A stretch of 64,000 nucleotides of DNA from Tindallia sp. MSAO_Bac2 (GCA_003838145.1 QYZZ01000078.1:25587-89586), one strand, 5' to 3'; shown: positions 1,170 to 19,200, numbered from the stretch's first letter. Notes: generated by a model from the letters alone, not told the origin. Translations and numbers: made by a program.

Positions 1170-1185
1170 TGCAATATTCGTGCCA
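1170..1185 (-). promoter_or_regulatory. sigma54 -24/-12 promoter for nhaC
   Basis: Minus strand reads TGGCAC-GAATA-TTGC. Confidence 0.8.
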
Positions 1186-3834: not shown

Positions 3835-3841
3835 ACAAACC

Positions 3842-4216
3842 TTATCGGTTCAGATACTTCCGCATTCTCTCCTCGTCATCCTTTTCCAGACCCCGCTCTC
3901 CGGCCAGGCTCTCCAAATGATGGGTAAATTCATGAAACAGAACGTCTTTTACTTTCTCGTAGAGTTTTGCTCTGGATAACCCACGATAAACCTGTCGGAA
4001 AGACCCATAGTAAATGAAAATTTGCCGACCCATCTGATCCCTTCTATATTGACCCATTACATATAAAGGCTGGCCTGGTTTGGAATGCGTATGTTTTTTG
4101 GAACGCTCCAGCAAAACAACGCCCCCGTGCAATTCCTTAAAAAAATCCTGAGGGATTTCATCGGAAATATCGTTTAACATTTCATGAAATTCGTCAACTG
4201 AGGGAAACTTTGACAT
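3842..4216 (-). CDS. Minimal zincin-like metallopeptidase family protein
   Basis: HEFTH Zn motif in 124-aa ORF; I.IYYGSF motif. Confidence 0.75.
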   Translation of the reverse strand: MSKFPSVDEFHEMLNDISDEIPQDFFKELHGGVVLLERSKKHTHSKPGQPLYVMGQYRRDQMGRQIFIYYGSFRQVYRGLSRAKLYEKVKDVLFHEFTHHLESLAGERGLEKDDEERMRKYLNR

Positions 4217-4391
4217 AATAACCTTCCTTTAATCTTTTTTTTCATTGTATGCTATAAGGAGCACTTGTTTCAAGTGCATATCTCTTTCCAAGTTTATGGT
4301 TCATAAACGCCATATTTATGATATGATGAAAAATGGCTGATTTAAAGAACGGCTAAAGATTTAAGCTTTGCAAGAAGGAGAATACTATATT

Positions 4392-5186
4392 ATGCGAATG
4401 ATTAAAAAACTTGTAGGGAGGTTGATTTTTGGCTTTGCCAAAGTGCTTTCCCATACCTTGGATGGTTTGGTTTATGCCATTGAAACAGGGGTACTGCTGG
4501 CGAAAAGTTTTCTGAAAGGCTGCGCTGTGCTGATTAGCATGGGTGGATGTCTTTTTATACTCCTGATGATCGGACCGTTGGGAACTTTGTTGCTTCGCAA
4601 TCCTGTTGCTCTGCCATTATTGTTTCTGATAATGATTTTTCCGGTTATTGGAGCCATTTCGATTGTATATCTAAAATATATTAAGTACATTACCACGAAG
4701 TATCTTTTTCATCTGGCTGAACACCTGATGGACAGCGAGAAGGTGCAATATCGTTCTTTTGGCGAATTCAAAGAAGACTTCAGAAGAGCCGAAGAAGAAA
4801 GAATCAGACGCGAGCAGGAACGGCGTCGGCAACAGCAACGACAGTGGGAAGAACGTTTTCGGCAGTGGCATCAGCAAAGTGGCGGATGGCAGGGAACGTA
4901 TCAAAGAGGTTACAGTGGCGGGTATGGAAGCCAGGGAGGCTTTGGACCAACTGGCGGAAACCCATACGAAGAGTTTAAGCAAAAATACAGGGAAAGCTGT
5001 GAAATACTGGGTGTTTCCGAAGAGGCTGATCAGTATCGGATAAAGCTGGCATATCGAAAAAAAGCCAAGGAATTTCACCCGGATGTCAATAAAGACCCGC
5101 AGGCTACACAAAAATTTCAAAAGATCAATGAAGCTTACGAATTTCTTAACGAAGACAATATTCAGAGATATCAACGTATGCAGTGA
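4392..5186 (+). CDS. Membrane protein with C-terminal DnaJ (J) domain
   Basis: N-terminal TM helices, Q/R coiled region, G-rich linker, [16 protein letters not shown]-domain; start after AAGGAG. Confidence 0.88.
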
Positions 5187-5266
5187 TTGTAGGCGTATGA
5201 AGAAAACTATACATTGAAAAGAATTTTTGATCTACTTAAAGATGTGATGACGAAAGGGAGTTGGCG

Positions 5267-6460
5267 ATGAAAAGAAGTGTAGGGACCGTTGCGAGAGGCA
5301 TTAGAACACCCATTGTATCTCAGGGAGACAGTATTGAAAAAATTGTTATTGACAGCATTCAAAAGGCTGCAGAGCAGGAAGGTTTCTCTATAAGGGACCG
5401 GGATATCATTGGCATTACCGAATCGGTAGTGGCCCGTGCTCAGGGAAATTATGCCAGTGCCGATGACATAGCCATAGATGTTAAAAGTAAACTTGGAGGA
5501 CAGAAACTGGGTCTTCTTTATCCTATCCTTAGCCGCAACCGATTTGCCGTACTGTTGCGTGGTATTGCAAGAAGCACCAGTCATATTGTTCTTATGCTCA
5601 ACTATCCTTCCGACGAAGTTGGAAATCCACTGGTCAGTATCGATGAACTGGATGCCAGAGGGATTGATCCCTGGACAGATCATCTGACGGAAGAAGATTT
5701 TCGCAATGCTTTTGGCGTAACCGTGCACCCCTTTACCGGCGTTGACTATGTTGAGTATTATCGTTCCATTATTGAGGAAAGCGGCGCTGAATGTACGATT
5801 CTTTTTTCTAACCGGCCTGAAACCGTGCTGGAGCATACGGACCAGGTACTTACCTGTGATGTTCATACCCGCTCCCGAACGAAACGCCAGCTTTTAAATG
5901 CCGGGGCAAAAAAAGTATACTGTCTGGATGAAATTCTGACAGAACCTGTTAACGGTAGCGGATACAATCCGGAATACGGGCTGTTGGGTTCCAATAAGGC
6001 AACGGAAGAGACCATAAAACTTTTTCCCCGGGATTGCCAGATGCTGGCAGAAAGAATCCGGAATAAGCTGAAAGAACAGACGGGAAAAATCGTGGAAGTA
6101 TTGGTTTATGGTGATGGAGCCTTCAAAGATCCTCAGGGGAAAATATGGGAACTGGCAGATCCGGTGGTATCGCCTGGCTACACGGAAGGTCTGGAAGGAA
6201 CACCCAATGAAGTAAAGATTAAGTATCTGGCAGACAATGACTTTGCAGATCTGGAGGGGGAAGCCCTGCAGGATGCAATTTCGCAACACATCAGCAGTAA
6301 AAAAGAGAATCTGGTGGGGGCAATGGAAGCTCAGGGAACGACCCCCAGAAAACTGACGGATTTAATTGGTTCACTCTGCGATCTGACATCCGGAAGCGGA
6401 GATAAAGGCACACCGGTGGTGTATATCCAGGGATATTTTGACAGTTACATCGAAAGATAA
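5267..6460 (+). CDS. CofE-like (F420-0:gamma-glutamyl ligase family) protein
   Basis: GIRTPIVSQGD, ITESVVARAQGN, DLIGSLCDLTSGSGDKGTPVVYIQGY motifs. Confidence 0.8.
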   Translation: MKRSVGTVARGIRTPIVSQGDSIEKIVIDSIQKAAEQEGFSIRDRDIIGITESVVARAQGNYASADDIAIDVKSKLGGQKLGLLYPILSRNRFAVLLRGIARSTSHIVLMLNYPSDEVGNPLVSIDELDARGIDPWTDHLTEEDFRNAFGVTVHPFTGVDYVEYYRSIIEESGAECTILFSNRPETVLEHTDQVLTCDVHTRSRTKRQLLNAGAKKVYCLDEILTEPVNGSGYNPEYGLLGSNKATEETIKLFPRDCQMLAERIRNKLKEQTGKIVEVLVYGDGAFKDPQGKIWELADPVVSPGYTEGLEGTPNEVKIKYLADNDFADLEGEALQDAISQHISSKKENLVGAMEAQGTTPRKLTDLIGSLCDLTSGSGDKGTPVVYIQGYFDSYIER

Positions 6461-6538
6461 ACATAATTCAAAAATATGAAATAATTTGCGCAATTCATGA
6501 AAAGTTTTGCGTAGTATAGAGAAAAGCTAAATTATAAA

Positions 6539-6582
6539 ATGGCCTGATTGCTGGTGTTCAGCAATCAGGCCATATATTTTTT
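6539..6582 (+). terminator. Intrinsic terminator-like hairpin
   Basis: Perfect 15-bp IR ATGGCCTGATTGCTG/CAGCAATCAGGCCAT followed by T run. Confidence 0.7.
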
Positions 6583-6583
6583 T

Positions 6584-6599
6584 TGGCACGGTAATTGCT
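6584..6599 (+). promoter_or_regulatory. sigma54 -24/-12 promoter for TRAP-KamA-amidase operon
   Basis: TGGCAC-GGTAA-TTGCT. Confidence 0.85.
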
Positions 6600-6705
6600 C
6601 TAATAGATAAGTATGTCAATCAGCCGATTAAGAAGTTCGGCGGCACTTTAGTAAGATTTGCTGATTTTTCATAAACTTGATTACAACTTGAAAGGAGCTG
6701 AAATA

Positions 6706-7236
6706 ATGGAGGATAAAAACATGGAAACATCTGTTGGAAAACTGGAAAAGATGATTGATAAATTGGAAATGTCGGCAGTTTATCTCAGCAGTCTCGGAGT
6801 CATTGTGATGATGTTTCTTGTGACGGCAGATGTATCGCGACGATATTTGTTCAATCGACCTATTAGAGGTGGCATGGAGGTAACAGAAATTATTATGGTG
6901 ATCATTGTTTTCCTGGGTATTTCATACGCTCAAAAACAAAAGGCACATGTAGGATGTGATGTCTTTTACGACCGGATACCAAGCGAAAAGCTCAAAGCCA
7001 TTATTGCGCTGATTCAATACGTTATTTCCATAGTGATTTCTTTTGCTATGAGTTACTACACATTCATGAGAACCATCGTGGCCCACAGAACCGGAGTTAG
7101 CAGCATATACATGTACTGGCCGCTGTGGCCCCTGCCATTAATTGCAGCGATAGGCTTTGCGCTGTTAGGGCTCAGACTGATGCTGGATACACGCGATCAG
7201 TTTCTGAAAGTAAAGCAGATGAAAAATCAACTGTAG
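6706..7236 (+). CDS. dctQ: TRAP transporter small permease
   Basis: 4 TM; ADVSRRYLFNRPI, HVGCDVF DctQ motifs. Confidence 0.9.
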   Translation: MEDKNMETSVGKLEKMIDKLEMSAVYLSSLGVIVMMFLVTADVSRRYLFNRPIRGGMEVTEIIMVIIVFLGISYAQKQKAHVGCDVFYDRIPSEKLKAIIALIQYVISIVISFAMSYYTFMRTIVAHRTGVSSIYMYWPLWPLPLIAAIGFALLGLRLMLDTRDQFLKVKQMKNQL

Positions 7237-7245
7237 GAAGAAAGG

Positions 7246-8556
7246 GTGAAAGTTGTGGAACATATAGGCTTTATAGGAATAGCGGTGTTGTTGTTATTAG
7301 TTTTTTCAGGAATGAGAGTTGCCTATGCTGTGATGCTGGTTGGTGGTCTTGGTCTGTTTCTTGTAAGAGGATTCTCCGGTGGCGGCGTTGGTGAATTTTT
7401 AGGATATATTCCTACTTCGCTGGCAGGCACCTACACATACAGTGTCATTCCACTCTTTATTCTTATGGGCTATTTTGTTTATTATTCGGGATTAACAGAT
7501 GAATTATTCGAGTGTGCCAGTGCTTGGGTTCGCCATATTCCAGGAGGCCTTCCTATTGCAACAGCACTATCCTGTGGCGTGTTTGCAGCAACCTCCGGAG
7601 CAAGTGTTGCATCATCGGCTATTTTTGCGAAAATTGCCATCCCTAAAATGCTTGATGCAAACGTTGATAAACGGCTTGCGGCTGGAATTGTTGCAACAGG
7701 TGGTACCATAGCGGCACTGATTCCCCCCAGTGCCATTATGGTTATCTTTGCCATACTCACAGAGCAATCTGTAGCTTTTATGCTGATGGCAGGTGTGTTG
7801 CCAGGTATTCTGACTATATTATTTTTGGTTCTCATTATTTATATACGAGCCAAGTTAGACCCAGCTTTGGCTCCTACCCTTCCAGCAGCCAGCTGGAAAG
7901 AACGTTTTCAAACAACGAAAAAAATCTTCGCCATTCCAGCGATTATTGTCATTATTATTGGAGGTATTTATACAGGAATGTTTTCACCCACTGAAGCAGG
8001 AGGGATGGGAGCCTTCGTGGCGTTAATAATGGTTATAGCCAAAAGAAAATTAACGATGAAGGTGTTGATGGAATCACTGGTAGAAACAGTTAAAACGACA
8101 AGCTTTGTGTTCTTTCTGATGATTGCGATAACCATATTTCTCAGATTCTTAGTATTAACAGGTACGGTAGGAGCAATTACAGGATTTGCACTTGACCTAC
8201 CTATTTCTCCCATTGCGGTGCTTACAGTTATTTTACTGATTCATGTTTTACTTGGGATGTTTATGGACGCCATAAGCATGATGATGTTGACGGTTCCAAT
8301 TTTTTTTCCGGTAGTAGTTGCGCTGGGATACAATCCTATCTGGTTGGGTATTCTTGTAGTAAAAATGGGTGAGCTTAGCTTGATTACACCACCTATTGGG
8401 CTCAACTGTTATGTGGTTGCCGGTTCGACGGACAGAGTCTCTGTTGATGATGTTTTCAGGGGAATCCTTCCCTTTACGCTTGCAGATGTTGCTGTGGTTA
8501 TACTGGTTATAATATTCCCGGCATTAGCATTATACCTGCCAAGTATGATGGGTTAA
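7246..8556 (+). CDS. dctM: TRAP transporter large permease
   Basis: IPLFILMG, ALIPPSAIMVIF, FSPTEAG, LITPPIGLN motifs. Confidence 0.93.
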   Translation: MKVVEHIGFIGIAVLLLLVFSGMRVAYAVMLVGGLGLFLVRGFSGGGVGEFLGYIPTSLAGTYTYSVIPLFILMGYFVYYSGLTDELFECASAWVRHIPGGLPIATALSCGVFAATSGASVASSAIFAKIAIPKMLDANVDKRLAAGIVATGGTIAALIPPSAIMVIFAILTEQSVAFMLMAGVLPGILTILFLVLIIYIRAKLDPALAPTLPAASWKERFQTTKKIFAIPAIIVIIIGGIYTGMFSPTEAGGMGAFVALIMVIAKRKLTMKVLMESLVETVKTTSFVFFLMIAITIFLRFLVLTGTVGAITGFALDLPISPIAVLTVILLIHVLLGMFMDAISMMMLTVPIFFPVVVALGYNPIWLGILVVKMGELSLITPPIGLNCYVVAGSTDRVSVDDVFRGILPFTLADVAVVILVIIFPALALYLPSMMG

Positions 8557-8659
8557 GCACTTTATTTAAAGAAAGAGGTGATTTGTTACAAAAAAACTTC
8601 GTTGACAGAAAAATGGAAAAAAAGTTTTTAAAAAGAGCAATTAAAAAAGGAGGATTAGC

Positions 8660-9739
8660 ATGTATAAAAATCGATGGCTAACAATTCTATTGGCAATCAT
8701 GATGGTGCTTACACTTGTTGGATGTGGAGGTGGAAATGGAAACGATCAGGTATCGGGTAACGGTGGAGAAGATAATCCTGAACCAGCAGATGAAATTATT
8801 CACTGGGATGTGTCTATCTATGGAGCGAGCAGAGCCTGGACTAAACCTGTTGAGGAGTGGGCTGATACAATGCATGAAAGAACCGATGGACGCTGGGTTA
8901 TCGAGTTGCACTATGGTGAAGTGCTGGCTCCGGCAGCAGAAAACCTGGAAGGTGCATCTTCAAGACTCTTTGAAGTTGGAGCTGTATGTCCGTTCTATTC
9001 GCCAGGAACATTGCCGCTAAATCAGGTAATGGATTTGCCTTTTCTACCACCTATGAGCAATGAAGATATTGTCACATTCCAAAAGGCAATCTGGGATCAC
9101 CCGGACGTAATTGCAGAATTTGAAAATCATAATGTAGTGCCACTTATACCAACGGGTTTGCCTCAATTGGAAGCCATGTCAAAATCTCCTATCAGAACGG
9201 CAGAAGACTGGGATGGCATTCGAATGGCTGGTATGAGTGCGGAATTAGGTTATGTATTAGAAGAATTTGGCGGAGTGCCGAATCCGATGCCAGCACCAGA
9301 CGTTTATATGTCGCTGGACAGAGGAGTTTTGGATACTGTTATTATGCATAACACGTATGCCTTTGGCTCCTATTCTTTTCATGAAGTTACAGACTACTAC
9401 GTAACGGATCTCGCTCTGGGAACAGTTGCTGCCTTTTATGTAGCGAATAAAGACGCTTGGGAAGAGCTGCCACAAGAATTCCGGGATATTCATATGGAAT
9501 TCTACGACGATATGGAAGCTATCGGAGCGAAGTATTATGCAGAAGCAGATGAAGAGTTCGAACCATTATTTAAGGAAAACATGGAACACATTGCTTTTCC
9601 TGCAGAAGAGAGAGAAAAACTGGAAGCAGAAGCGGAAAAAATATGGCAGGAATGGGCGGAAAGATGGGAAGACAGAGGCGATAGTCATGGCTTACTTGAG
9701 CAAATGATTGAATTAAGCGATCAGTTGGATTCTCAATAA
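8660..9739 (+). CDS. dctP: TRAP substrate-binding lipoprotein
   Basis: Lipobox LVGC; VYMSLDRGVLD DctP motif; follows dctQM. Confidence 0.9.
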   Translation: MYKNRWLTILLAIMMVLTLVGCGGGNGNDQVSGNGGEDNPEPADEIIHWDVSIYGASRAWTKPVEEWADTMHERTDGRWVIELHYGEVLAPAAENLEGASSRLFEVGAVCPFYSPGTLPLNQVMDLPFLPPMSNEDIVTFQKAIWDHPDVIAEFENHNVVPLIPTGLPQLEAMSKSPIRTAEDWDGIRMAGMSAELGYVLEEFGGVPNPMPAPDVYMSLDRGVLDTVIMHNTYAFGSYSFHEVTDYYVTDLALGTVAAFYVANKDAWEELPQEFRDIHMEFYDDMEAIGAKYYAEADEEFEPLFKENMEHIAFPAEEREKLEAEAEKIWQEWAERWEDRGDSHGLLEQMIELSDQLDSQ

Positions 9740-9760
9740 ATAAAATGAGGAGGGCTGTAG

Positions 9761-10906
9761 ATGCCGGACTTTGAATCATTAAACTGGAAGGAAGAGCTTA
9801 AAAACAACATTAAAACCATAGATGAGCTTAAAAATTTCATAGACTTGACGGAAACAGAAGAATCTGATCTCCGCAAAGTAGTGAAGCAGCACCCGATGAA
9901 TATTCCTCGTTACTACATGAATCTGGCTGATCCGGCTGATCCTGAAGATCCAATCAGAAAGCTTTCTGTACCAAGCATTGATGAGTTGTTTGAAAAAAGT
10001 CTGACGGGAAACACAACAGATGATCCATACGGTGATGATAAACACGACAAAGGAAATGGAGTTCTCCATAAATATCCGTACACAGCATTGGTAGTAGCAA
10101 CAGAGTATTGTTCCATGTATTGCAGGCATTGTTTTAGAAAACGCATGGTAGGATTGAGTACCAATCAGACGGTCAAAAATTTTAAAAATGCTGCAGAATA
10201 CATTGCTGATCATTCAGAAATTAAAAACGTTGTGATTTCAGGTGGAGATCCATTTCTACTTGGGACAGAAGCTCTGAGAGAAATGCTGAATGCTTTAAAA
10301 AATATTGATCATCTAAATTATGTGCGAATTGGTTCCAGAGCACCAGTTGTATACCCTCTCCGCTTTATGGATGATGAATTAATGGAAGTGCTGAAGGAAT
10401 TCAATGAATATAAAGCTTTATACGTTCCGACACACTTTAATACCGCTAAAGAAATAACCCCATTGGCGACGAAGGCTGTTGGACGACTTCGGAAAGCAGG
10501 CTTAACAGTCAATAATCAGGCAGTGTTTTTGAAAGGTGTAAATGACTCTGTTGAAAAATTGGTGGAGTTGATGGATGGATTGGTTAGAATAGGAGTGAAC
10601 CCATATTATTTATACCAATGCATGCCGGTATCAAAAGTAAGAAGACAGTTTCAGGTTCCTCTAAAAGAAGGAACAGAGATTGTCAGCGAAGCTAAAAGAA
10701 GATTAGATGGGTATGCGAAACGCTTTAAGTTTATTATGGGAGATGATAGTGGAAAAATCGAAATATGTGGTAGTTCAGGAAATTATTTAGTTATGAGTCA
10801 AATACACTCCAGACCAGAAGAACCGGAACAGGCATCAAAGATTATGATCAAAGAACTGACAGATGATGCCGGCTGGCTGGACGACCTGGGGCAGGATCTG
10901 CTGTAG
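9761..10906 (+). CDS. KamA-family radical SAM aminomutase-like enzyme (substrate unknown)
   Basis: HKYP, CSMYCRHCFRKR, SGGDP, RIGSRAPVVYP, THFN, NQAVFLKGVND, PYYLYQC. Confidence 0.9.
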   Translation: MPDFESLNWKEELKNNIKTIDELKNFIDLTETEESDLRKVVKQHPMNIPRYYMNLADPADPEDPIRKLSVPSIDELFEKSLTGNTTDDPYGDDKHDKGNGVLHKYPYTALVVATEYCSMYCRHCFRKRMVGLSTNQTVKNFKNAAEYIADHSEIKNVVISGGDPFLLGTEALREMLNALKNIDHLNYVRIGSRAPVVYPLRFMDDELMEVLKEFNEYKALYVPTHFNTAKEITPLATKAVGRLRKAGLTVNNQAVFLKGVNDSVEKLVELMDGLVRIGVNPYYLYQCMPVSKVRRQFQVPLKEGTEIVSEAKRRLDGYAKRFKFIMGDDSGKIEICGSSGNYLVMSQIHSRPEEPEQASKIMIKELTDDAGWLDDLGQDLL

Positions 10907-10989
10907 TATAATTGAATGACAAAATATGAGAAGCGGTGGACTACTAAAGTCTGCCGTTTCCCTGCTATTAGAAAACGAGGTGACATGAT

Positions 10990-11820
10990 ATGAGGCTTGC
11001 TCTTGGACAGACAAATCCTATTATTGGTGAGGTGAAAAGCAATTTAAACAAAATAAAAAACGTAGTTAAGGAATCGTCAGAAAAAGGTGCTAATCTAATT
11101 CAGTTTACAGAGTGTGCAGTAACCGGATACTGCTATGAATCAAGAAAGGAAGTCCTCCATTATGTTAAAGAAGGGTTGTCAGAGAAAATCATAAGTGAAA
11201 TCAGCGGTATTTGCGGTTCATCGATGGTGATGCTTGGAACTTTAGAAGTGATTAATGGCACCATCAGGAATTCAATTTTGCTGATTTCTTCGAATGGACT
11301 TATTGCAAAATACTATAAGTGCCACTTGCCCGTTCTGGGTGCTGATCGTTTTGTTACACCCGGTGAAGGACTATGTGAAATAATCGAAACTCCCTTTGGT
11401 AAGATAGGGATTCTGGTGTGCTTTGAGCTTCGATTCCCTGAGGTGGCAAGAATTTTGGCTCTGAAAGGAGCAGACATTATTTGCAACCCGACAAATGTTC
11501 CTGTGGGAGGCGAGGCGGCAGTCGACTATCTTGGTCGTGCCAGGGCACTGGAAAACAGAGTATATGTGTCGTCCTGTAATAGAACAGGAATTGAAAGAAA
11601 TACTCAGTTTATTGGAAAGAGCCAGGTAGTGGATCCTTCCGGTAATTTTATTACAGCAACTGACGACAGGGAAGTAATACTGTATGCAGACATAAACCTT
11701 CAACTGGCACAAAATAAAACGATAGTCATTAAAGCTGGAGAATATGAACTTCCACTTTTTAAGCAAAGAAAAACCCGTATGTACTCGGCGATAACAGAAG
11801 CACAGTATAATGGCAGATAA
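10990..11820 (+). CDS. Carbon-nitrogen hydrolase (nitrilase/amidase family)
   Basis: E-K-C triad: FTECAVTGY, YYKCHL, VCFELRFPE; ARALEN, NRTG. Confidence 0.9.
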   Translation: MRLALGQTNPIIGEVKSNLNKIKNVVKESSEKGANLIQFTECAVTGYCYESRKEVLHYVKEGLSEKIISEISGICGSSMVMLGTLEVINGTIRNSILLISSNGLIAKYYKCHLPVLGADRFVTPGEGLCEIIETPFGKIGILVCFELRFPEVARILALKGADIICNPTNVPVGGEAAVDYLGRARALENRVYVSSCNRTGIERNTQFIGKSQVVDPSGNFITATDDREVILYADINLQLAQNKTIVIKAGEYELPLFKQRKTRMYSAITEAQYNGR

Positions 11821-11925
11821 ATGGTTGAATGTTTCTGGAAATTCTGATAAAAAGAATATATTACAATTAAAACATTTGATTTTTATGAATAAGCAACTTC
11901 TAAGTTGTGATTTGGAGGCAAAAGT

Positions 11926-13278
11926 ATGGCGGAGAAGAAAAAACTGCCCCAAAAAAGCGAGATAAACAAATCTTACAGATTATTAATGGCTGGCACAATA
12001 ACAATTATTGCAGTTCCGGTCATTGTGATTATCTTTTTATTGTTCGAAGTGTTTAATGCCCAACAGGACCTTTCAAAACAGAAAAAACAGCAAATGGAAA
12101 GCATAAGTAACCATGTAATCATGCAGGTTTCACAAAATCATCAAACCGGCACTGTTTATATAGACTGGGAAGAACTCATACAGAATTTGCCTGTTGCCAA
12201 CAACGAAGCTGGCTACCATTGGCTTGTTTTTGATGAAAGAAACGTTAATATATTCAGATCGTCCTGTCTTCCGCAAGAATTGCTAAATGCTGCTGAATTA
12301 ATTAATTTGGAAGGACCTGAAGGGCTTCGGGAGTGGAAACCGGCGGGAGAATGGATTGTTGTTGAAGAACAGGTCGATAGGAATGGTGGCCCCGCTTATT
12401 ATTTGATCTTAGCATCGCAGGAAAGTCTATTCAGTCAATATGTAACAAGAATACAGGTAGTTTCGGTTGTTGGGTTGATTCTGATTGGAATTATTGCTTC
12501 GAAGATCGTATTTAAACTGGCAGATGAAATGATATCGAAATATGCAGACATATCAGAGCGTTACAAAAAAGTTGACTATGAAGATCGATTCAAAGAACAC
12601 CTGATTTCGCAGAAGATGGTTACGATGGAAAATTTTGCGGCTGGAATTGCTCACGAGATTGGTAATCCTTTATCTTCCATTTTAAGTACGATACAAATTC
12701 TTACTGGTTATGAGTTGGATGAAGATGAGACCCGCAATCAATATAATCAGTTAATGAAGGACTCCAGAAAAATTGACAGGATATTGCATGAAATACTGGA
12801 TTATCGAAGGTATAATAATGAAGCAAATATTAAAGTGAACCTTAATGACATTATTAGTGACTCTGTTGGAAGCATAGAAGCTGAATGTGCAACAAAAAAC
12901 ATTGAGTTTGCATTAGAATTATCACCTAATATTCCTGAATTGATTCTAAATGAACCTCAGCTTAGAATTGTATTTTTAAATATTATCCGAAATGCCTGTC
13001 AGGCTATAAATGAACAGGGCTACGTTTATATCAGAACAATAGTTTACGATAATGTGGTGAGGGTTCGAATAGCAGATTCTGGATCGGGAATAAAACCAGA
13101 ACATATGGATAACATATTTGACCCTTTTTTCACAACCAAAGATGTTGGGAAAGGCATGGGAATGGGTTTATATGCTTCGTTTCAAATAATTCATGCTCAT
13201 AAAGGATCCATTTCTGCTGAAAGTAATTACGGAGAAGGTACAATCTTTACTGTCGACTTTCCGTTTGTAGAGGAGTGA
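11926..13278 (+). CDS. Membrane sensor histidine kinase (NtrB/AtoS-like)
   Basis: Two TM; AHEIGNPL H-box; N, G1, FDPFFTTK, GMGMGL boxes. Confidence 0.92.
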   Translation: MAEKKKLPQKSEINKSYRLLMAGTITIIAVPVIVIIFLLFEVFNAQQDLSKQKKQQMESISNHVIMQVSQNHQTGTVYIDWEELIQNLPVANNEAGYHWLVFDERNVNIFRSSCLPQELLNAAELINLEGPEGLREWKPAGEWIVVEEQVDRNGGPAYYLILASQESLFSQYVTRIQVVSVVGLILIGIIASKIVFKLADEMISKYADISERYKKVDYEDRFKEHLISQKMVTMENFAAGIAHEIGNPLSSILSTIQILTGYELDEDETRNQYNQLMKDSRKIDRILHEILDYRRYNNEANIKVNLNDIISDSVGSIEAECATKNIEFALELSPNIPELILNEPQLRIVFLNIIRNACQAINEQGYVYIRTIVYDNVVRVRIADSGSGIKPEHMDNIFDPFFTTKDVGKGMGMGLYASFQIIHAHKGSISAESNYGEGTIFTVDFPFVEE

Positions 13279-14678
13279 TATCGGTGCTTAACAGGATATT
13301 GGTTGTGGAAGATGAAACAAACTTACGCAATAACCTTGTATTCATATTCCAAAAAGAAGGTCTTCAGGTAAGTGCAGCAGAAGATGGCTACACTGCAAAA
13401 GAGATGATTTTATCGAATGAATATGAAATAATACTTCTGGATATAAAACTGCCCGGGTTAAGTGGTTTGGAATTGCTTGAACTTAAGTCCCGGATAAAGT
13501 ATGAATGCAAATTTGTTGTCATGACGGCATATGGCAGCATAGAGTCAGCTGTAGAAGCTATCAAACTGGGAGCGGAAGAGTACATCACCAAACCATTTCG
13601 CAATGACTATATGATCAGGGCTATAAAACGTCTTCTTCACATTCGGAAGCTGGAAAGTGAGAACATTAATTTCAAGACTGAAATAAAAAAACAATATGAA
13701 TTAGAAAAAAGCATTATTGGCTCCAGTGCTGCAATGCAAAAGGTATTTGATCAGGTGAGGATGATTACTGAACTGGATACAAATGTAATGGTTTCAGGCG
13801 AAAGTGGAACGGGAAAAGAATTAATTGCAAAAGCAATTCACTCTTACAGCAATCGTTTTTCGAAACCATTTATTCCGGTAAATTGCGCAGCTATCCCTAA
13901 AGATCTTTTTGAGTCTGAATTTTTTGGTCACGTAAAAGGTTCTTTTACGGGTGCAGATATTGATAAAAACGGTTATTTCTTGGATGCAAATGGAGGAACC
14001 CTTTTTCTCGACGAAATAAGCGAAATGCCGATGCAAATGCAGGCAAAACTCCTTCGAGTCCTGCAGGAAAATAAAGTTAGACGAGTTGGTGACTCAAAAC
14101 AACATTCTTTTGACACCAGAATTTTATCCTCATCGAATAAAGATTTAAAAGTGATGATTGGAGAGGGGACTTTTCGTGAAGACTTATACTACAGGATTAA
14201 AGTAGTAGAAATTAAGCTTCCTCCACTACGGGAACGTGAAGGCGACTTGACGCTGCTTATTGACTTTTTTGTGAATAAATATAACCGCCTGTTTAATCGA
14301 AACATAAAAAAAGTGAGCGAGGAAGCAATGATTTTGTTAAGGAGCCACAGCTGGCCCGGCAATATAAGGGAATTGGAGCATACGATACAATCAGCCATTG
14401 CTTTATGCAGATCAGATGAACTGAGGAAAGAGGACTTTATCGGTCTGGACCAACAGGACGATGGTGTGAAGGTAATAATACCATCGCATCGTACAAATTT
14501 AAAAGAATTACTACAACAAACCAAAGCAACTGTTGAGAAAGAAATGATCAGAAGAGCTTTGGGAAATAGTCGGGGTAATCAGGTTCAGGCTGCAAAAGAG
14601 CTGGGTATGAGCCATCGCAACTTATTATACAAACTGAAAGATTATGGTATTAAAAGTAAGGACGATAAGTATGATTAA
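13275..14678 (+). CDS. sigma54-dependent response regulator (NtrC/AtoC-like)
   Basis: Receiver, GESGTGKE, GSFTGA, LFLDEI, WPGNIRELE, Fis-type HTH. Confidence 0.95.
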   Translation: MISVLNRILVVEDETNLRNNLVFIFQKEGLQVSAAEDGYTAKEMILSNEYEIILLDIKLPGLSGLELLELKSRIKYECKFVVMTAYGSIESAVEAIKLGAEEYITKPFRNDYMIRAIKRLLHIRKLESENINFKTEIKKQYELEKSIIGSSAAMQKVFDQVRMITELDTNVMVSGESGTGKELIAKAIHSYSNRFSKPFIPVNCAAIPKDLFESEFFGHVKGSFTGADIDKNGYFLDANGGTLFLDEISEMPMQMQAKLLRVLQENKVRRVGDSKQHSFDTRILSSSNKDLKVMIGEGTFREDLYYRIKVVEIKLPPLREREGDLTLLIDFFVNKYNRLFNRNIKKVSEEAMILLRSHSWPGNIRELEHTIQSAIALCRSDELRKEDFIGLDQQDDGVKVIIPSHRTNLKELLQQTKATVEKEMIRRALGNSRGNQVQAAKELGMSHRNLLYKLKDYGIKSKDDKYD

Positions 14679-16185
14679 TAAGTATATTGTTATTGGTTTT
14701 ATATCGTTTTATATTGCTATAACGCTTCTGGTGGGAATGATGGCTTCGGTTAAGCGACAAAACATAGAAATGTATTTTCTGGCCGGAAGACGTTTGGGTC
14801 CAGTGATGCTGGCATTCTCTTTTTCGGCTACTGCAATGAGCGGGCTGCTTTTTTTCGGTTTTTCCGGTATGTTCTTTGAAAGTGGACTACAGAATCTGTG
14901 GTTACTAATTTCCAGTGGTATTGTTGGGATTCTACTTTGTTATTATTTGGTCAGCAAAAAGATTCGTCTTTACTCGGAGCGTACTGGAGCATTAACGGTT
15001 ATAGAATTGCTGAAAAATCGGTATGGGGATAGTGAGCGATACCTGGCTAGAATAACAGCCATGATTATTATTGTTTCGACTGTGTTATATGTGAGTGGAC
15101 AATTGATTGCGATGGCAAAATTAATGGATATTTTTATTGGTTTGCCTTATGAGACGTCCATTATCATTTTTGCATCAGTTATTGTAACCTATACGGTAAT
15201 GGGGGGATTTAAAGCGGTATGCTGGACAGATGTGTTTCAGGGAATATCTATGGTGCTGGCCTGTTTGCTGGTGGGTAGCGTTGTGTGGCGCATTAATTCC
15301 GGATTTTCTCAGCTTTGGTTGAACATGACGATTATTAATCAGTCTGACTCGCAGTTTTATATTTCTCCGTTTGCGACCCCTTCGAACATTTTACTGGGAG
15401 TCACGCTATTCCTGGGTGATGGAATTATGAGCTGGATCGGACAGCCTACCTTAATGACCCGATATATGTCTTTAAGAAAAATAGGTGACTTTGGTCAGGC
15501 GAAAAAACTGAGCGTTTTATTCCAAATGATCCTGTTTGCCGGGGTGGTTTTAGCTTCTTTTCACATGAGGACACAATACTTTGAAGCGAGTATGCTGCCG
15601 ATGGGAGAAGATATGGAAACGGTGTTCATACAGTTTTTTCTGACCTATATGAATCCACTTTTGGGAGGGGTTGTACTGGGTGGCATTATAGCGGCTATTA
15701 TATCAACAGCAGACTCGCTGATTATCTTAGCCAGCTCAATATGGGCGAATGATATCTATGGCAGCAAAAATCAACATGCTACACCAGAAAAACTAATATG
15801 GGTCAGCAAGATAACAACATTACTAATTGGACTAATTGTTGTTTTGATATCCTTCAACATTCACACAGTATTGCTTGTGGCCTGGACGGGTTGGACGATG
15901 CTGGGGATTGTTGGTGTTCCTTTAATTGTTGGGATGTACTGGAAAAGGGCAACGCTTCGAGGTGCGATTTGTGCGGAAATTGCCGGGGTTGCTACACTTA
16001 TTCTTTGGGTAGCTTTTGATCTGACAGGTAAGCTAAGTATTTTTTATGCTTTTCCGGCAGGGGTTGTTTCTTACTTGAGCATCTTCCTTGTAAGCTGGTT
16101 CGATAAAAGTCCCCCGGATTATATCCAACAGGAAATAGCTGACTTAAACCGGAATTATGAATATGAAAGCAAAGCGCGGATTTAA
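14671..16185 (+). CDS. Sodium:solute symporter (PutP-like)
   Basis: YFLAGRRLG, SATAMSG, GGFKAVCWTDVFQG, AAIISTADS motifs. Confidence 0.9.
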   Translation: MINKYIVIGFISFYIAITLLVGMMASVKRQNIEMYFLAGRRLGPVMLAFSFSATAMSGLLFFGFSGMFFESGLQNLWLLISSGIVGILLCYYLVSKKIRLYSERTGALTVIELLKNRYGDSERYLARITAMIIIVSTVLYVSGQLIAMAKLMDIFIGLPYETSIIIFASVIVTYTVMGGFKAVCWTDVFQGISMVLACLLVGSVVWRINSGFSQLWLNMTIINQSDSQFYISPFATPSNILLGVTLFLGDGIMSWIGQPTLMTRYMSLRKIGDFGQAKKLSVLFQMILFAGVVLASFHMRTQYFEASMLPMGEDMETVFIQFFLTYMNPLLGGVVLGGIIAAIISTADSLIILASSIWANDIYGSKNQHATPEKLIWVSKITTLLIGLIVVLISFNIHTVLLVAWTGWTMLGIVGVPLIVGMYWKRATLRGAICAEIAGVATLILWVAFDLTGKLSIFYAFPAGVVSYLSIFLVSWFDKSPPDYIQQEIADLNRNYEYESKARI

Positions 16186-16195
16186 AAGCTGTCCT

Positions 16196-17359
16196 CTACT
16201 TTTCGAGGACAGCTTTCCTGATTTCATGCCCTTCATCAAGACTTGTAGTGCGAACAATAATTGCATGATCCCCCATGGCAGCTGCAAAGGCTTGTGGTAT
16301 GAGCCCGCTGAAGACCACGGCCTCCGGGTATAAAGCAGCGATTTCTTCTGCTGATAACGCATAGTGATAATGATTTTTCCGACCGATATAAAAACAGTTG
16401 TATTTGCGGTCTGCTTCCGGGGAAAACGTCCCCCTGACCATCAGTTGAGCATAAAGATCGTAAACATTTATATCGTTGGCATAATTGATCATGTCCACAA
16501 TCATCCCGCCTGGGGGCCGGGCATTGACTTCCAAAGCGATAATACGGTTATCGGAAGTTACGAAGAATTCGATGTGGAAAAACCGCTGATTCAATCTGAA
16601 AGCTTCCACTGCTTTTCTGCCTGCCTCCACAATTCCGGGAGAAAGTTCTTTTGGAATATAGATGAACATATCCAAATTTTCATTGACGGATTCCATGACA
16701 TCGGTGCCGTACACCAGTCCTGATTCCAGCAAAATATTTCCTTGCTGGTCCACCATTCCGTCGTAGGAGTGAATGGTTCCGGTGACGTATTTTTCAAGAA
16801 AATAATCCACTGGAAGTTTGTGCGATAAAAAATTCTCCAGGTCCTGCTGATTATTCAGCTTATATGTGGCGTATGCGCCGACTCCATTATCCGGTTTCGC
16901 AATAACCGGATAATCATGTTTTTTGATAAATTCATACGCCTTTGCCTGGTCCCCGTCCTTCAAGACGGTGCCTGGAACTGTTTCGATACCGGCTTGCTGA
17001 AACACAGGCTTCATGCCGGATTTATACTTTAAGGGGTACATTTCTTCTGTCTTTAAGCCAGGCACATTAAAATCCGTTCTCAGTTTTGCATCTGTTTCCA
17101 ACCAGAATTCATTGTTCGATTCAATGCCATGGATTTTACCGTACCGATGGGTGAAGTACCCGCATGCCCGGAGCAATTGCTGATAATCTGTCATATCGCC
17201 CACCTGATAATATTCTGTCAGGGAAGCTTTAACGTCAGCCGCCAAACTGTCGTAAGCATCTTCGCCAATGCCCAGGGTATTGACGCCCAGGTCTTTGATA
17301 GCGGACCAGAAACGGTGGTAATGTGGTGGAAAATGAGGCGACAGGATAACGAAATTCAT
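16196..17359 (-). CDS. ATP-grasp domain protein
   Basis: IESNNEFWL, PVIAKPDNGVGA, FFHIEFF, EVNARPPGG. Confidence 0.85.
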   Translation of the reverse strand: MNFVILSPHFPPHYHRFWSAIKDLGVNTLGIGEDAYDSLAADVKASLTEYYQVGDMTDYQQLLRACGYFTHRYGKIHGIESNNEFWLETDAKLRTDFNVPGLKTEEMYPLKYKSGMKPVFQQAGIETVPGTVLKDGDQAKAYEFIKKHDYPVIAKPDNGVGAYATYKLNNQQDLENFLSHKLPVDYFLEKYVTGTIHSYDGMVDQQGNILLESGLVYGTDVMESVNENLDMFIYIPKELSPGIVEAGRKAVEAFRLNQRFFHIEFFVTSDNRIIALEVNARPPGGMIVDMINYANDINVYDLYAQLMVRGTFSPEADRKYNCFYIGRKNHYHYALSAEEIAALYPEAVVFSGLIPQAFAAAMGDHAIIVRTTSLDEGHEIRKAVLEK

Positions 17360-17487
17360 GGATTCACCAACTTTCCTTTAAACTAGGGAGAGGCTGTGGA
17401 GCCTCTTGCCGTTAACTCCATCAATACCCAATAAGTATCAGAATAATCAGAAAACCCATGCGGTTCATTCAGGAGGAAGGAACAAAA

Positions 17488-18876
17488 TTATTTTTCCTGG
17501 ATCATCCTGGAAAGCAGTTCTCTTTTTTGCTTAACGCCATACTTTCTATAAATATTTTTCAAGTGAGTTTTCAGCGTATTTTCACTGATGTACAATTTTT
17601 CCGCGATCACCTTGTTAGTGAAACCTTCCAGTAGCAGGGAAATAATTTCTTTTTCCCTGGTTGTCAGGTCCTGTCCCGGAAGCAGAAGGGATTCAGTTAA
17701 GACACTGGGATCATTGTCTAATGCTTTTTCTGTGTTTAAACGACTCTTGATGCGTGGAATCAAAGGGAGTAGCAAAAAAAGTATAGATGCTGAAAGAAAT
17801 GCAGCCATTACCCGGTACATTTCGCTGGAAAGCAAAAGTTGATGCCCAAACCATTCGCCGGCAATAATGCTAAAAAGTTTTCCTCCTAAGGCAATTCCGA
17901 AAAAAAGGTAAGGAGAACCATAAACAGAGGCGAGGGAGCCGATGAGCGTCCAGCTGAAAAGGTCCAGCAAAGCGTAGGAAGATTCCAGTAAAAAGGCTGT
18001 AATCAGCAAAGAGATAATGTTCTTTCCGGCAATGGAAAAAAGAATAAAGGAAAGCCCCAACAGTGATATTCCAAGATAAACAGGTAACTCCCACCGCAGT
18101 TTATATCCCCACAAACCAAGGAAAACTAACACGAGAATATACGGAATATAAGTATAGTCAAAGTAAAGGAAAAGCCTTCCGGACTCAGCCAATGATGGTC
18201 GGATAATTGTGTAGACAAGCCCGGCGCTGAAATAAAGGCCTGCCAAAAGGAAAGTCAGATAGGACAAAACAGGCACCGGCGCACCACTCTCAGTCAAATC
18301 TTCCGGAGACACAGTTTCCTCCGGAGCAGATTCCTTTATGGAACGCAGCAAAATCAGCAGCACAAGGAATAAAGGCAGTATTGAAACAGGCAGCACTGCA
18401 GCATCCTTTAACACTGCTGTTGCGTTTTTGGTCAAAACATATACCAGGTTGGCCAGAATAATGACAGAGGCCATAATCTTCAGCCGCTCCCGGGTTTGAA
18501 TCTTAAAGGAGAAAGGCACAGACCATCCCAGGATGAACAGGGCGGAACAGACGCCCAACGCAGCAAAAACAGGAGGCCATAATGTCGCTGGTGAAAACAG
18601 GATAAAAAGATGCAATATGATAGTCGTTATAAGGGAAGATATCATGAGCTTTTGCCAGGACACAGCTTTAGGCAAAACAAAAGCAGCTACAAAAAAAGCG
18701 AGAGCATGAAAAAAACCGAAAATTAACGGCAGAGAAAAGCCATAAAACTCATCTAGGGGAGCTGTGCTTCTTAACACAGGACCATGAAAAGGAAAAGAGA
18801 GCATCCAGCCAAAGTAAACCCCTTTGATCAGAATAATCCTTAGATGCTGGATGGGACTATGAAATAGTTTGAACAT
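17488..18876 (-). CDS. Multi-TM membrane protein with C-terminal LuxR HTH
   Basis: About 12 hydrophobic segments then LTTREKEIISLLLEGFTNKVIAEKLYISENTLKTHLKNIYRK. Confidence 0.88.
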   Translation of the reverse strand: MFKLFHSPIQHLRIILIKGVYFGWMLSFPFHGPVLRSTAPLDEFYGFSLPLIFGFFHALAFFVAAFVLPKAVSWQKLMISSLITTIILHLFILFSPATLWPPVFAALGVCSALFILGWSVPFSFKIQTRERLKIMASVIILANLVYVLTKNATAVLKDAAVLPVSILPLFLVLLILLRSIKESAPEETVSPEDLTESGAPVPVLSYLTFLLAGLYFSAGLVYTIIRPSLAESGRLFLYFDYTYIPYILVLVFLGLWGYKLRWELPVYLGISLLGLSFILFSIAGKNIISLLITAFLLESSYALLDLFSWTLIGSLASVYGSPYLFFGIALGGKLFSIIAGEWFGHQLLLSSEMYRVMAAFLSASILFLLLPLIPRIKSRLNTEKALDNDPSVLTESLLLPGQDLTTREKEIISLLLEGFTNKVIAEKLYISENTLKTHLKNIYRKYGVKQKRELLSRMIQEK

Positions 18877-19012
18877 AAAAACACTTCCTATAAGACGTGA
18901 CTTAAGACCTATTGATTTCATTATAGCATAGACAAAGCGATTTTGAAAATTCAGAAGGTAAAAACATGAAAGAAACTGACGGATGAGTATAGAATACTTG
19001 AAAAAACCATCC

Positions 19013-19032
19013 CCTCACCTTTTAGGGTGAGG
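19013..19032. promoter_or_regulatory. Palindrome, candidate LuxR-type operator
   Basis: CCTCACC-TTTTAG-GGTGAGG between divergent genes. Confidence 0.35.
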
Positions 19033-19200
19033 AGAAAGGTAAGGTGCTTTTGTAATAAAGTATTATTCAGCGACGTTTTGTCCAAAAGGGTGATAACAAT
19101 AATGGTTTGAGCGTGATAAGTTGGGTCTAGGATATAACAAAAAGCAACAAGGAGAATTGGTTTATCAGAAACTATTTGAACCCGGAAAGGATGATGTGGA

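Follow-up and report, generated by a model that had tools for sequence, protein, structure and literature searches.

A possible uptake-and-conversion island around an atypical KamA-family aminomutase in a soda-lake Tindallia

Introduction

What compound is sensed, imported and converted by a gene block in which a KamA-family radical-SAM/PLP 2,3-aminomutase lies between a TRAP transporter and a C-N hydrolase, followed by a two-component system and a Na+ symporter? To our knowledge, substrates have been assigned in the KamA family only for the lysine, glutamate and arginine enzymes and for EpmB. The block occurs in Tindallia sp. MSAO_Bac2, a haloalkaliphilic, amino-acid-fermenting soda-lake bacterium, whose habitat is presumably hypersaline, judging from the origin of the metagenome-assembled genome (MAG) of its closest relative. 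It belongs to a stretch of 64,000 nucleotides (hereafter the window), from whose first letter all positions are counted. An earlier note on this DNA had described a sigma-54-controlled catabolic cassette, in which an amide would be imported, hydrolysed and subjected to a 2,3-amino shift.

Results

A discrete gene block under sigma-54 control

The three TRAP subunits, the KamA-family enzyme, the C-N hydrolase, the kinase, the activator and the symporter named in the earlier note are all present, each on the + strand (Table 1), and our analysis supports a discrete cassette controlled by sigma-54 and a two-component system. The genes overlap or are closely packed, and we found no internal terminator. 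The start of the activator gene overlaps the kinase stop by 4 nt, and that of the symporter (ORF 14644-16185, likely start ATG 14671) probably overlaps the activator stop by 8 nt. The hairpin directly 3' of the symporter stop overlaps the end of a convergent ATP-grasp gene.

Table 1. Features of the block, with positions in the window and the evidence for each
Feature	Position	Strand	Evidence and remarks
Candidate upstream activator sites, two direct repeats ATGAAAnnnTTTGCG	6476-6490, 6497-6511	+	21 bp start-to-start
Bidirectional terminator hairpin	6539..6573		15-bp arms and T tract; closes the upstream gene and insulates the cassette
Sigma-54 promoter TGGCAC-N5-TTGCT, TGGCACGGTAATTGCT	6584..6599	+	GG at -24, GC at -12
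DctQ, TRAP small membrane subunit	6706..7236	+	PF04290, 83 bits
DctM, TRAP large membrane subunit	7246..8556	+	PF06808, 269 bits; TIGR00786, 280.6 vs cut-off 268.5
DctP-type lipoprotein solute receptor	8660..9739	+	PF03480, 109 bits; NF037995; lipobox LVGC; pI 4.2
KamA-family radical-SAM/PLP 2,3-aminomutase	9761..10906	+	TIGR00238, 281.5 bits vs cut-off 199.2
Nitrilase-superfamily C-N hydrolase	10990..11820	+	PF00795, 149 bits
Sensor histidine kinase	11926..13278	+	HisKA and HATPase_c
NtrC-family response regulator / sigma-54 activator	13275..14678	+	REC; Sigma54_activat (AAA+, GSFTGA loop); HTH_8 (Fis-type HTH)
Na+/solute symporter (SSS), PutP-like	14671..16185	+	Equivalog 275.7 vs cut-off 515.5, far below
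Hairpin AAAGCTGTCCTC/GAGGACAGCTTT	16185..16216		12-bp arms; read directly from the sequence

In the closest relative, a Tindallia sp. MAG (G001), the genes flanking the block (6461-16195, 9.7 kb) lie 63 bp apart, and the block is also absent from two further members of the genus. Since the flanking genes are adjacent in G001 and orthologue searches for the KamA-like gene recovered none from 40 relatives and none from 400 genomes of the phylum Bacillota (~440 in total), the whole block is an island; we give an even chance to its being a horizontally acquired, self-regulated uptake-and-conversion island. Homologue searches showed that relatives of DctP and of the C-N hydrolase are both rare, and recovered no close relative of the symporter from our collection of genomes and contigs. 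The combination of genes was not found in any other genome or contig searched, so that comparison lends no support to functional coupling; the island is a mosaic unmatched in that set, and "catabolic cassette" therefore stays a label that we infer.

The promoter had rightly been called a consensus one: it conforms to GG-N10-GC, rpoN is present in the genome (482 bits), and an activator is encoded in cis. It lies 107 nt 5' of the dctQ ATG, which is preceded by AAAGGAG within an ORF that opens at 6658. Exact TGGCAC-N5-TTGCW sites number 13 genome-wide versus 1 for the reversed control pattern, which places the promoter beyond chance; about 1.7 such sites would be expected from base composition. 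Within the window alone, one-mismatch sites are no more frequent than chance predicts (4 vs 4.2 expected). The genome encodes about 20 sigma-54 activators, several of which adjoin consensus promoters. The two ATGAAAnnnTTTGCG repeats lie about 75-110 bp 5' of the -24 element, and their motif has three matches in the window against 0.64 expected, a count that 0 of 100 shuffles reached; they are the putative binding sites of the activator.

The sensor kinase has two membrane helices (residues about 20-45 and 172-200) flanking an outside domain of ~125 aa, for which no Pfam family was matched. Of the proposed "NtrB/NtrC-type pair", the two-component pair holds, while the assignment to NtrB/NtrC proper does not: the proteins are AtoS/AtoC- or ZraS/ZraR-like and fall below all equivalog cut-offs.

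A third aminomutase in the genome

The KamA-like enzyme keeps the CSMYCRHC motif, the Arg after the third Cys equivalent to R134 of lysine 2,3-aminomutase (LAM), SGGD and the PLP lysine K332; C117/C121/C124, G161-G162-D163 and K332 are invariant in alignments A1, A2 and A4. Its AlphaFold model (pLDDT 83.8) has LAM (2A5H) as its only strong Foldseek match in the PDB (TM 0.76, E 2.5e-28). With an intact ORF, all family-invariant motifs and a LAM-like model, the enzyme looks functional.

The substrate side of the pocket is not that of LAM. From the literature on 2A5H, we take Asp293 and Asp330 of LAM to bind the epsilon-ammonium group of lysine, and the conserved Arg to bind its alpha-carboxylate. 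Met288 occupies the Asp293 position in both A1 and A2, and the Asp330 position is taken by Ile325 (A1) or Gly327 (A2), depending on the placement of a gap in a loop that is two residues shorter. At the Zn site, Ser stands in the Cys268 column, there is no LAM_C hit and the tail holds one Cys; in the predicted model a small beta-sheet domain replaces the Cys-rich LAM_C tail.

Four family assignments were tried and rejected: lysine 2,3-aminomutase (TIGR03820; 272.8 bits vs cut-off 525.4, with Met at Asp293 and the Zn-site Cys lost), arginine 2,3-aminomutase (TIGR04468; 263.7 vs 600), glutamate 2,3-aminomutase (TIGR04368; 247.2 vs 650, with Met and Ile/Gly where the genome's own glutamate enzyme has Lys/Asn) and EpmB (TIGR03821; 216.7 vs 369.3). 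The same genome carries a genuine LAM (627.1 bits) in a kdd-kamA-kamDE cluster on contig C124, and a genuine glutamate 2,3-aminomutase (691 bits) on another contig. The earlier note was thus correct that this is not the canonical lysine enzyme and that kdd/kce/kal/kamDE are absent from its vicinity, these genes being on another contig with a KamA of their own. The KamA-like enzyme is a third specificity in this genome, beside the two genuine aminomutases.

The solute receptor and the hydrolase

The TRAP set is complete, with Q, M and P subunits. An Arg of TRAP receptors sets their specificity for carboxylates (PMC4646407; PMC11668362). In alignments at 23-45% identity, this clamp Arg (SiaP Arg147 type) is replaced in DctP by the Ala of GIRMAG; the site is Arg in 4NAP, 4PGN, 4N6D and 5IM2 and in five sequence homologues, and Thr and Ser in the two nearest homologues. 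The nearest solved structure matches only at E 4e-17. The nearest homologue of all (45% identity, Ser at the clamp site) belongs to an amidase-dctPQM-CoA ligase-beta-oxidation cluster, where dctP follows the amidase gene.

The Glu41-Lys110-Cys144 triad of the C-N hydrolase is intact, and its residues are invariant among 12 homologues. The best model is that of the archaeal nitrilase (146 bits vs cut-off 500), all equivalogs being far below cut-off, and in the PDB the hydrolase comes closest to PH0642 / P. abyssi nitrilase. The closest relatives adjoin Liv-type amide/amino-acid ABC importers, and some are labelled 5-aminopentanamidase by JGI.

The KamA-like clade and its neighbourhoods

The KamA-like enzyme belongs to a clade with more than 3000 matches, whose sampled members come mostly from marine and soda-lake Desulfobacterota and Proteobacteria. 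Among the matches listed that carry the motif, Met stands at the LAM Asp293 position in 119 of 119. In our tree, a branch with 100/98 support separates the clade and its sister from LAM, AblA and the glutamate enzyme. Surveying about 80 other clade loci, we found no TRAP genes except a single distant DctM match, and a C-N hydrolase adjoined the clade gene in only one, where it is partial and lies downstream of a proteobacterial member. The usual neighbours are osmolyte genes, not amidases. In another Bacillota genome, a member of the sister clade adjoins an unrelated amidase and an S58 peptidase: the juxtaposition of an aminomutase and an amide hydrolase recurs, with hydrolases that are non-homologous.

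Discussion

A possible route for a neutral amide

Our best reading, to which we give about equal chances of being right or wrong, is that an extracellular amide is sensed, taken up by the TRAP system, hydrolysed and subjected to an amino shift between the beta and alpha positions. The membrane kinase would sense the compound through its outside domain and phosphorylate the activator, which would bind the tandem ATGAAAnnnTTTGCG sites and open the promoter at 6584, driving dctQMP and the genes of the KamA-like enzyme and the hydrolase; co-transcription would probably extend further, read-through into the kinase, activator and symporter genes being likely as no terminator precedes the kinase gene. 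Because the receptor lacks the Arg that normally clamps a carboxylate, the imported ligand may be a neutral amide-type compound: a primary amide, or an amino acid carrying a carbamoyl or acyl group. The hydrolase would free the carboxylate and release ammonia, and the aminomutase would shift the amino group between C3 and C2 of a non-basic amino acid, most likely from beta to alpha, which would let the product enter ordinary fermentation; since the aminomutase keeps the Arg for the alpha-carboxylate, an order with hydrolysis first fits. The symporter may import the free amino acid or a related form.

The import, hydrolysis and 2,3-shift proposed in the earlier note are thus favoured by the receptor without its clamp Arg, by the position of its nearest homologue after an amidase and by the Arg kept in the aminomutase, and disfavoured by a hydrolase pairing that recurs in one of about 80 loci. 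An amide ligand is further favoured by the Liv-type importers beside the closest hydrolase relatives and the 5-aminopentanamidase label of some of these, and by the hydrolases that adjoin the sister-clade member and the one proteobacterial member. Several points speak against our best reading: it is not obvious how Met would bind an amide side chain, the clamp site was assigned from alignments of low identity, the window enzyme departs from its clade at near-invariant positions, no other genome or contig searched has the combination of genes, and the usual context of the clade is osmolyte-related, with TRAP and C-N hydrolase genes near-absent from the other loci.

Alternative explanations

This osmolyte context suggests a different role, which we regard as unlikely but the foremost of the alternatives: scavenging of a beta-amino-acid compatible solute, its free carboxylate kept, released by neighbours in hypersaline soda-lake sediment. 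The best candidate would be beta-glutamine (3-aminoglutaramate), converted by the KamA-like enzyme to L-glutamine and by the hydrolase to glutamate, or by the hydrolase to beta-glutamate; N-epsilon-acetyl-beta-lysine would instead be turned by the mutase into N-epsilon-acetyl-lysine and by the hydrolase into lysine, for the kam pathway of contig C124. Both are known solutes of halophilic methanogens (PMC1224877), the host owns a full lysine fermentation cluster, and the cluster of the nearest DctP homologue might fit a glutaramate-like ligand. Six Desulfuromonadales-type loci have a clade member immediately next to ablA-ablB (ablA, TIGR03820, 707-776 bits in the five full-length genes; ablB, TIGR03827, 314 bits), and clade members also occur beside BCCT and OpuAC transporters, polar-amino-acid ABC systems, sucrose-phosphate synthase and a recurrent MarR regulator. 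However, ablB is above the family cut-off in only two of the five clade genomes tested, and the GlnA or GS-like and glutaminase genes found near clade members adjoin a second KamA paralogue, not the clade gene itself. Moreover, both solutes carry a carboxylate, which the receptor has no Arg to clamp, Met in place of Asp293 would pair poorly with an amide, N-acetyl-beta-lysine would need just a deacetylase to join the pathway, and the window enzyme departs from the clade at five near-invariant loop residues.

These departures could mark a change of function or decay, and they bring up an improbable alternative, that TRAP genes, a hydrolase and a KamA paralogue that is drifting and may be inactive came together in a mosaic island by joint transfer or by chance, as neighbours that share no pathway. 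The window copy is the longest branch in the clade (0.7 vs median 0.19) and deviates at 12 of 190 columns conserved at >=95%, including FNH to FNT, whose His is near-invariant across the family alignment; the absence of the gene combination from the other genomes and contigs searched also agrees with such an origin. Against it, the ORF is intact with all cofactor motifs kept, gaps are short (21 and 83 nt) and terminators absent, a strong promoter comes with its own regulator, and an aminomutase beside an amide hydrolase is seen elsewhere with non-homologous hydrolases. Furthermore, the deviations cluster in two substrate-side loops, adjoining Met288 and Lys332 (five observed vs about one expected, in a post hoc comparison).

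The hydrophobic pocket positions, Met288 and Ile325 or Gly327, would also suit a carbamoyl compound such as 3-ureidopropionate, cleaved by the C-N hydrolase to beta-alanine, which a natural alanine 2,3-aminomutase would convert to L-alanine; the Asp330 equivalent has been removed in engineered alanine aminomutases. The best solved relative of the hydrolase bears its depositors' name "nitrilase / beta-ureidopropionase", and two genomes of Sedimenticola have the clade gene after an Lrp-type regulator gene that diverges from one for a DadA-like D-amino-acid dehydrogenase. We nevertheless consider this route quite improbable: 3-ureidopropionate carries a carboxylate, the hydrolase scores far below carbamoylase models, pan and pyrimidine-degradation genes were not found among the recurrent clade neighbours, and panD coexists with the clade in two of five genomes, so that the clade is not simply the missing source of beta-alanine. 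Finally, a biosynthetic island that turns an imported precursor into a beta-amino-acid solute, which may also be what the clade does in Desulfobacterota, would agree with the osmolyte-type neighbourhoods and the presumed habitat, but is very improbable given the nutrient-acquisition pattern of outward-facing kinase, sigma-54 activator, two importers and hydrolase, the cassette's lack of any acetyltransferase, exporter or osmosensing element by profile scores, and a survey of Clostridiales sigma-54 regulons that is said to have found them mainly catabolic.

Significance

Taken at its widest, the reading of a sensed and imported amide would have the island encode the entire pathway for a neutral amino-acid amide or carbamoyl compound whose catabolism has not been described. 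It would pair an Arg-less, amide-binding TRAP receptor with the first 2,3-aminomutase from nature to act on an uncharged amino acid, such as alanine, leucine, methionine or glutamine, and the clade of more than 3000 matches would make an unrecognised beta-amino-acid solute in marine and soda-lake bacteria; we regard all this as possible, though somewhat unlikely. The clade is strongly supported, comprises thousands of sequences and has a pocket that fits none of the KamA-family enzymes with assigned substrates. This is the only locus found in which one of its members comes with its own receptor, outward-facing sensor and hydrolase, so that ligand screens on three soluble proteins could identify the substrate. 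An Arg-less TRAP receptor coupled to amide hydrolases would mean that TRAP transporters take more kinds of substrate than is currently accepted; should the clade produce a beta-amino-acid solute, this would be relevant to where the beta-amino acids of saline sediments come from, and would offer a natural catalyst for the synthesis of such amino acids.

Comparison with known systems

The KamA of Clostridium subterminale (PDB 2A5H; TIGR03820) has in common with the KamA-like enzyme the fold, CxxxCxxC, SGGD, the PLP lysine and the Arg after the third Cys, and presumably also its 1,2-amino-shift chemistry; at 33% identity, the island enzyme differs in lacking Asp293, Asp330, Cys268, LAM_C and neighbouring kdd/kamDE. 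Glutamate 2,3-aminomutase and EpmB likewise share family and cofactor motifs with it, but it has neither the Lys/Asn pair of the genome's own glutamate enzyme nor the Asp/Glu pair of E. coli EpmB. [quoted passage not shown] With DctPQM/SiaPQM-type TRAP transporters, the island shares the Q-M-P gene set, family-level scores and a receptor of the lipoprotein kind that Gram-positives are expected to have, whereas the receptors of those systems are restricted to carboxylates by an Arg filter (PMC4646407) that the island receptor lacks. The sigma-54 regulons of Clostridiales have been reconstructed and surveyed, and response regulators make up only about 10% of their activators (PMC6615313), whereas the activator of the cassette is one; common to these regulons, to NtrBC/AtoSC/ZraSR-type sigma-54 two-component operons and to the island is an activator gene beside its -24/-12 promoter.

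Gene content and layout

The earlier note had listed, on the plus strand between 6584 and 16185, a sigma-54 promoter followed by genes for a TRAP transporter (dctQMP), a KamA-like radical-SAM enzyme, a C-N hydrolase, a two-component pair and a Na+ symporter, and every item is present as it described. The genes are tightly spaced, with 21 nt between dctP and the KamA-like gene, 83 nt between the latter and the hydrolase gene, and a 4-nt overlap of kinase and activator, and no convincing terminator was found in the sequence inside the block.

Features of the block and of its surroundings (window coordinates)
Feature	Position	Strand	Remarks
Exact sigma-54 consensus TGGCACGAATATTGCA	1171-1185	-	second exact site
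CofE-like protein	5261-6460		399 aa; F420-0:gamma-glutamyl ligase family, PF01996
Terminator hairpin	6539-6573		15-bp arms; closes upstream gene, promoter directly after
Sigma-54 promoter TGGCACGGTAATTGCT	6584-6599	+
dctQ	ATG 6706	+	preceded by AAAGGAG
dctM	after dctQ	+
dctP	after dctM	+	lipoprotein
KamA-family radical-SAM protein	9761-10906, after dctP	+	381 aa
C-N hydrolase	after KamA-like gene	+	276 aa
Histidine kinase	after C-N hydrolase	+
Sigma-54 activator	after kinase	+	REC-AAA+-HTH with GSFTGA loop
SSS-family Na+/solute symporter	probable ATG 14671	+	overlaps activator stop
Hairpin	3' of symporter stop		12-bp arms
ATP-grasp gene	16196-17359
LuxR-type membrane protein	17488-18921
Gene	19201-20748

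Promoter and sensing

Exact TGGCAC-N5-TTGCW sites number 13 in the whole genome, against one for the reversed control pattern; within the window, the count of one-mismatch matches is not above chance. The same genome encodes rpoN (482 bits) and about 20 sigma-54 activators, several of which adjoin exact consensus sites. Upstream of the promoter, ATGAAAnnnTTTGCG occurs twice at a spacing of 21 bp, and these copies are candidate activator sites; the window holds three matches of this type against 0.64 expected, and none of the shuffles reached three. Two membrane helices of the kinase flank an outside domain of about 125 aa, for which no Pfam family was matched, and given this arrangement the signal is probably extracellular. 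Apart from the block, a second exact consensus lies on the opposite strand (Table), and another sigma-54 activator gene is found just upstream of the window start (G000:C74:24046-24549).

An acquired island

The block is an acquired island. In the closest relative, a Tindallia of the same genus (G001), the upstream CofE-like and downstream ATP-grasp genes are convergent neighbours only 63 bp apart, and the block is also missing from two other members of the genus. No orthologue of the KamA-like gene was found among 40 genus-to-order relatives nor in 400 genomes sampled across the phylum, where the best matches have 37-44% identity. Likewise, only two DctP homologues exceed 40% identity among 5.8 billion proteins, few relatives of the C-N hydrolase exceed 45%, and a search of the genome-contig collection gave no close symporter relative. 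In Clostridiales, moreover, only about 10% of the sigma-54 activators are of the response-regulator type (PMC6615313). GC content is only slightly lower in the island (roughly 0.37-0.44) than in its flanks (0.41-0.50). Since the intergenic DNA of G001 does not align, the boundaries are defined at gene level only.

The adjoining region (16196-20748) is variable too, as its genes are patchy among relatives: the ATP-grasp gene is present in G001 and missing at the same site in two further relatives (G002 and G003), and the LuxR-type and 19201-20748 genes have no match in the stretches compared from these three genomes. The CofE-like protein on the other side is conserved (63-85% identity) in many Clostridia and Bacilli, in which F420 use is not known.

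A non-canonical aminomutase

The KamA-like protein passes the KamA-family model (281.5 bits, cut-off 199.2) and falls under every equivalog cut-off: lysine (272.8/525.4), arginine (263.7/600), glutamate (247.2/650) and EpmB (216.7/369.3). Genuine enzymes are encoded elsewhere in the same genome, a glutamate 2,3-aminomutase on contig C6 (691 bits) and a lysine aminomutase on contig C124 (627 bits), the latter within a PAS-activator-kdd-kamA-kamD-kamE cluster. This canonical lysine-fermentation cluster (L111, G000:C124:6000-20000) has its own PAS-type sigma-54 activator, followed by a kdd-like gene, kamA, two accessory genes (one MutS-like), kamD (914 bits) and kamE.

We aligned the window protein with the lysine and glutamate paralogues of the genome and with E. 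coli EpmB. The cluster cysteines, the SGGD motif and the PLP lysine are kept, as is the Arg two residues past the third cluster Cys, which serves as the alpha-carboxylate ligand in lysine 2,3-aminomutase (LAM, 2A5H). However, the position of LAM Asp293 is occupied by Met, that of Asp330 by Ile or Gly depending on gap placement in a loop two residues shorter, and a Zn-site Cys by Ser, and a small beta domain is predicted in place of the LAM_C tail. The AlphaFold model (pLDDT 83.8) has 2A5H as its sole strong structural match (TM 0.76), with low confidence in both substrate-side loops (78-95 and 289-293). Equivalog scores, pocket residues and genuine paralogues elsewhere together rule out a canonical lysine or glutamate function. 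The interpretation of the earlier note is partly supported.

The protein belongs to a clade of more than 3000 homologues, and we found no paper assigning it in the literature searched. The 119 matches listed besides the window's own protein have 65-69% identity and stem largely from marine or soda-lake organisms, among them Desulfuromonadales, Desulfobulbia, Sedimenticolaceae and Campylobacterota; one contig with the sample prefix ML8 may originate from Mono Lake. Met occupies the Asp293 position in all 119 motif-bearing proteins of the 120 listed, in which the following loop reads PV[SEAT]RVRHHF and the PLP loop GHDIGK. In a maximum likelihood tree, a branch with 100/98 support separates this clade and a sister clade, which has Arg at the Asp293 position and 43% identity to the window protein, from LAM, AblA, the glutamate enzyme and a further paralogue.

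The window protein is nested within the clade, where no other terminal branch is as long (0.7, the median being 0.19), and deviates at 12 of the 190 columns conserved in at least 95% of members. Five of these deviations (K292, R295, Q296, D328 and S330) lie in two loops flanking Met288 and Lys332, and another changes FNH to FNT, at a His near-invariant across the family alignment. A shift in specificity or a relaxation of constraint would each fit such a pattern.

Genomic context of the clade

At 79 other loci, which derive from related MAGs and are not independent, the clade gene mostly stands by itself. Genes that recur near it encode a MarR regulator (13 loci), components of polar-amino-acid ABC systems (7-12 loci), GntR or RpiR regulators, and BCCT and OpuAC transporters, with a sucrose-phosphate synthase once. 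[quoted passage not shown] These neighbourhoods point to salt adaptation and beta-amino-acid solutes (PMC1224877). Osmoregulation by the MarR neighbour is a lead, for which no curated CosR/EctR-type model was matched. The neighbourhood analysis proposed in the earlier note yields osmolyte-like contexts, and does not name the substrate.

The second paralogue (L053:6451-7527, L064:12176-13252, L092:12182-13258 and about 12 more) has some 358 aa and Thr at Asp330, falls under all equivalog cut-offs, and lies one or two genes from the clade gene, regularly adjoining a GntR or RpiR regulator. The ablA-ablB pair occurs in both gene orders (L054:783-4228, L067:9965-13371, L082:922-4378, L069, L056 and L058), and L054, L069 and L056 also have a MarR-type regulator like that beside stand-alone clade genes. 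In Sedimenticola (L045:7788-11140 and L051:7584-11137) the clade gene comes after one for an Lrp/AsnC-type regulator, which is transcribed divergently from a gene for a DadA-like D-amino-acid dehydrogenase; the arrangement recalls alanine-responsive dad operons.

Two specific roles were rejected: that of strict AblB partner, as ablB is present in two of five clade genomes tested, and that of missing beta-alanine source, as panD is also present in two of the five, so that there is no clean complementarity.

Hydrolase and receptor

The C-N hydrolase keeps the Glu41-Lys110-Cys144 triad and in structure most resembles archaeal 'nitrilases' and Nit2. In sequence, the nearest relatives are encoded in clusters of the type RpiR-GS-like-Liv ABC-hydrolase-peptidase M55, and remoter ones are found paired with a gene of the cyclase family (PF04199); some relatives bear the JGI label 5-aminopentanamidase.

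In TRAP receptors, an Arg acts as selectivity filter and restricts them to carboxylates (PMC4646407; PMC11668362). It ends the motif G-x-x-[IVM]-R in four solved and five sequence homologues, and is replaced by Ala (GIRMAG) in the window DctP, an apparent loss that was unexpected; the two nearest homologues (44-45% identity) have Thr and Ser. The nearest (45%), with Ser, is encoded in L118 (203-11219), where an amidase-signature gene precedes dctPQM and an ADP-forming acyl-CoA synthetase and a complete short-chain beta-oxidation set (Hbd-Crt-Acd-thiolase) follow. Such a gene set would be expected if a neutral aliphatic amide is taken up, and this TRAP system is a candidate for that role.

In another Bacillota genome (L109, G334:C57:44300-64200), a sister-clade gene adjoins an unrelated amidase (NF005899, 640 bits). 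The run, on the minus strand (2396-12535), continues with genes for a PlsC/OlsF-like acyltransferase, an NAD-dependent epimerase-like protein and an S58 (DmpA/BapA-type) peptidase, ends with two acyl-CoA dehydrogenase-like genes, named from sequence alone, and may represent a pathway for N-acyl or beta-amino-acid lipids or peptides.

Searches from the KamA-like protein, the hydrolase, DctP and the symporter found no such cassette conserved elsewhere. Around clade members (80 loci), no TRAP genes were found beyond one distant DctM match, and at one other locus only is the clade gene followed by a C-N hydrolase gene, partial and at a contig end. Searches from the hydrolase led to the Liv ABC-peptidase M55 and PF04199 contexts instead, that from DctP to its two homologues only, and that from the symporter to nothing.

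Proposed function

In the best-supported reading, an extracellular amide-type compound would be sensed by the kinase, taken up by the Arg-less TRAP system and hydrolysed to an amino acid and ammonia, and the resulting non-basic amino acid would undergo a radical 2,3-amino shift; the Na+ symporter would offer an additional way into the cell. We would place hydrolysis before the shift, given that the carboxylate-binding Arg of the mutase is retained and that of the receptor lost. The shift would run from beta to alpha, a direction favoured by the host being an amino-acid fermenter and by a regulation resembling nutrient acquisition. Specific substrate candidates are guesses, each in line with some observations and at odds with others.

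The system is unusual in a gene combination seen nowhere else in the data searched, in a receptor without the carboxylate clamp, and in an orphan aminomutase clade, and its main value is in soluble binding proteins with which experimenters could identify the substrate of this clade. The sigma-54 two-component operon, the TRAP transporter and the KamA-family mutase each belong to a known type of system.
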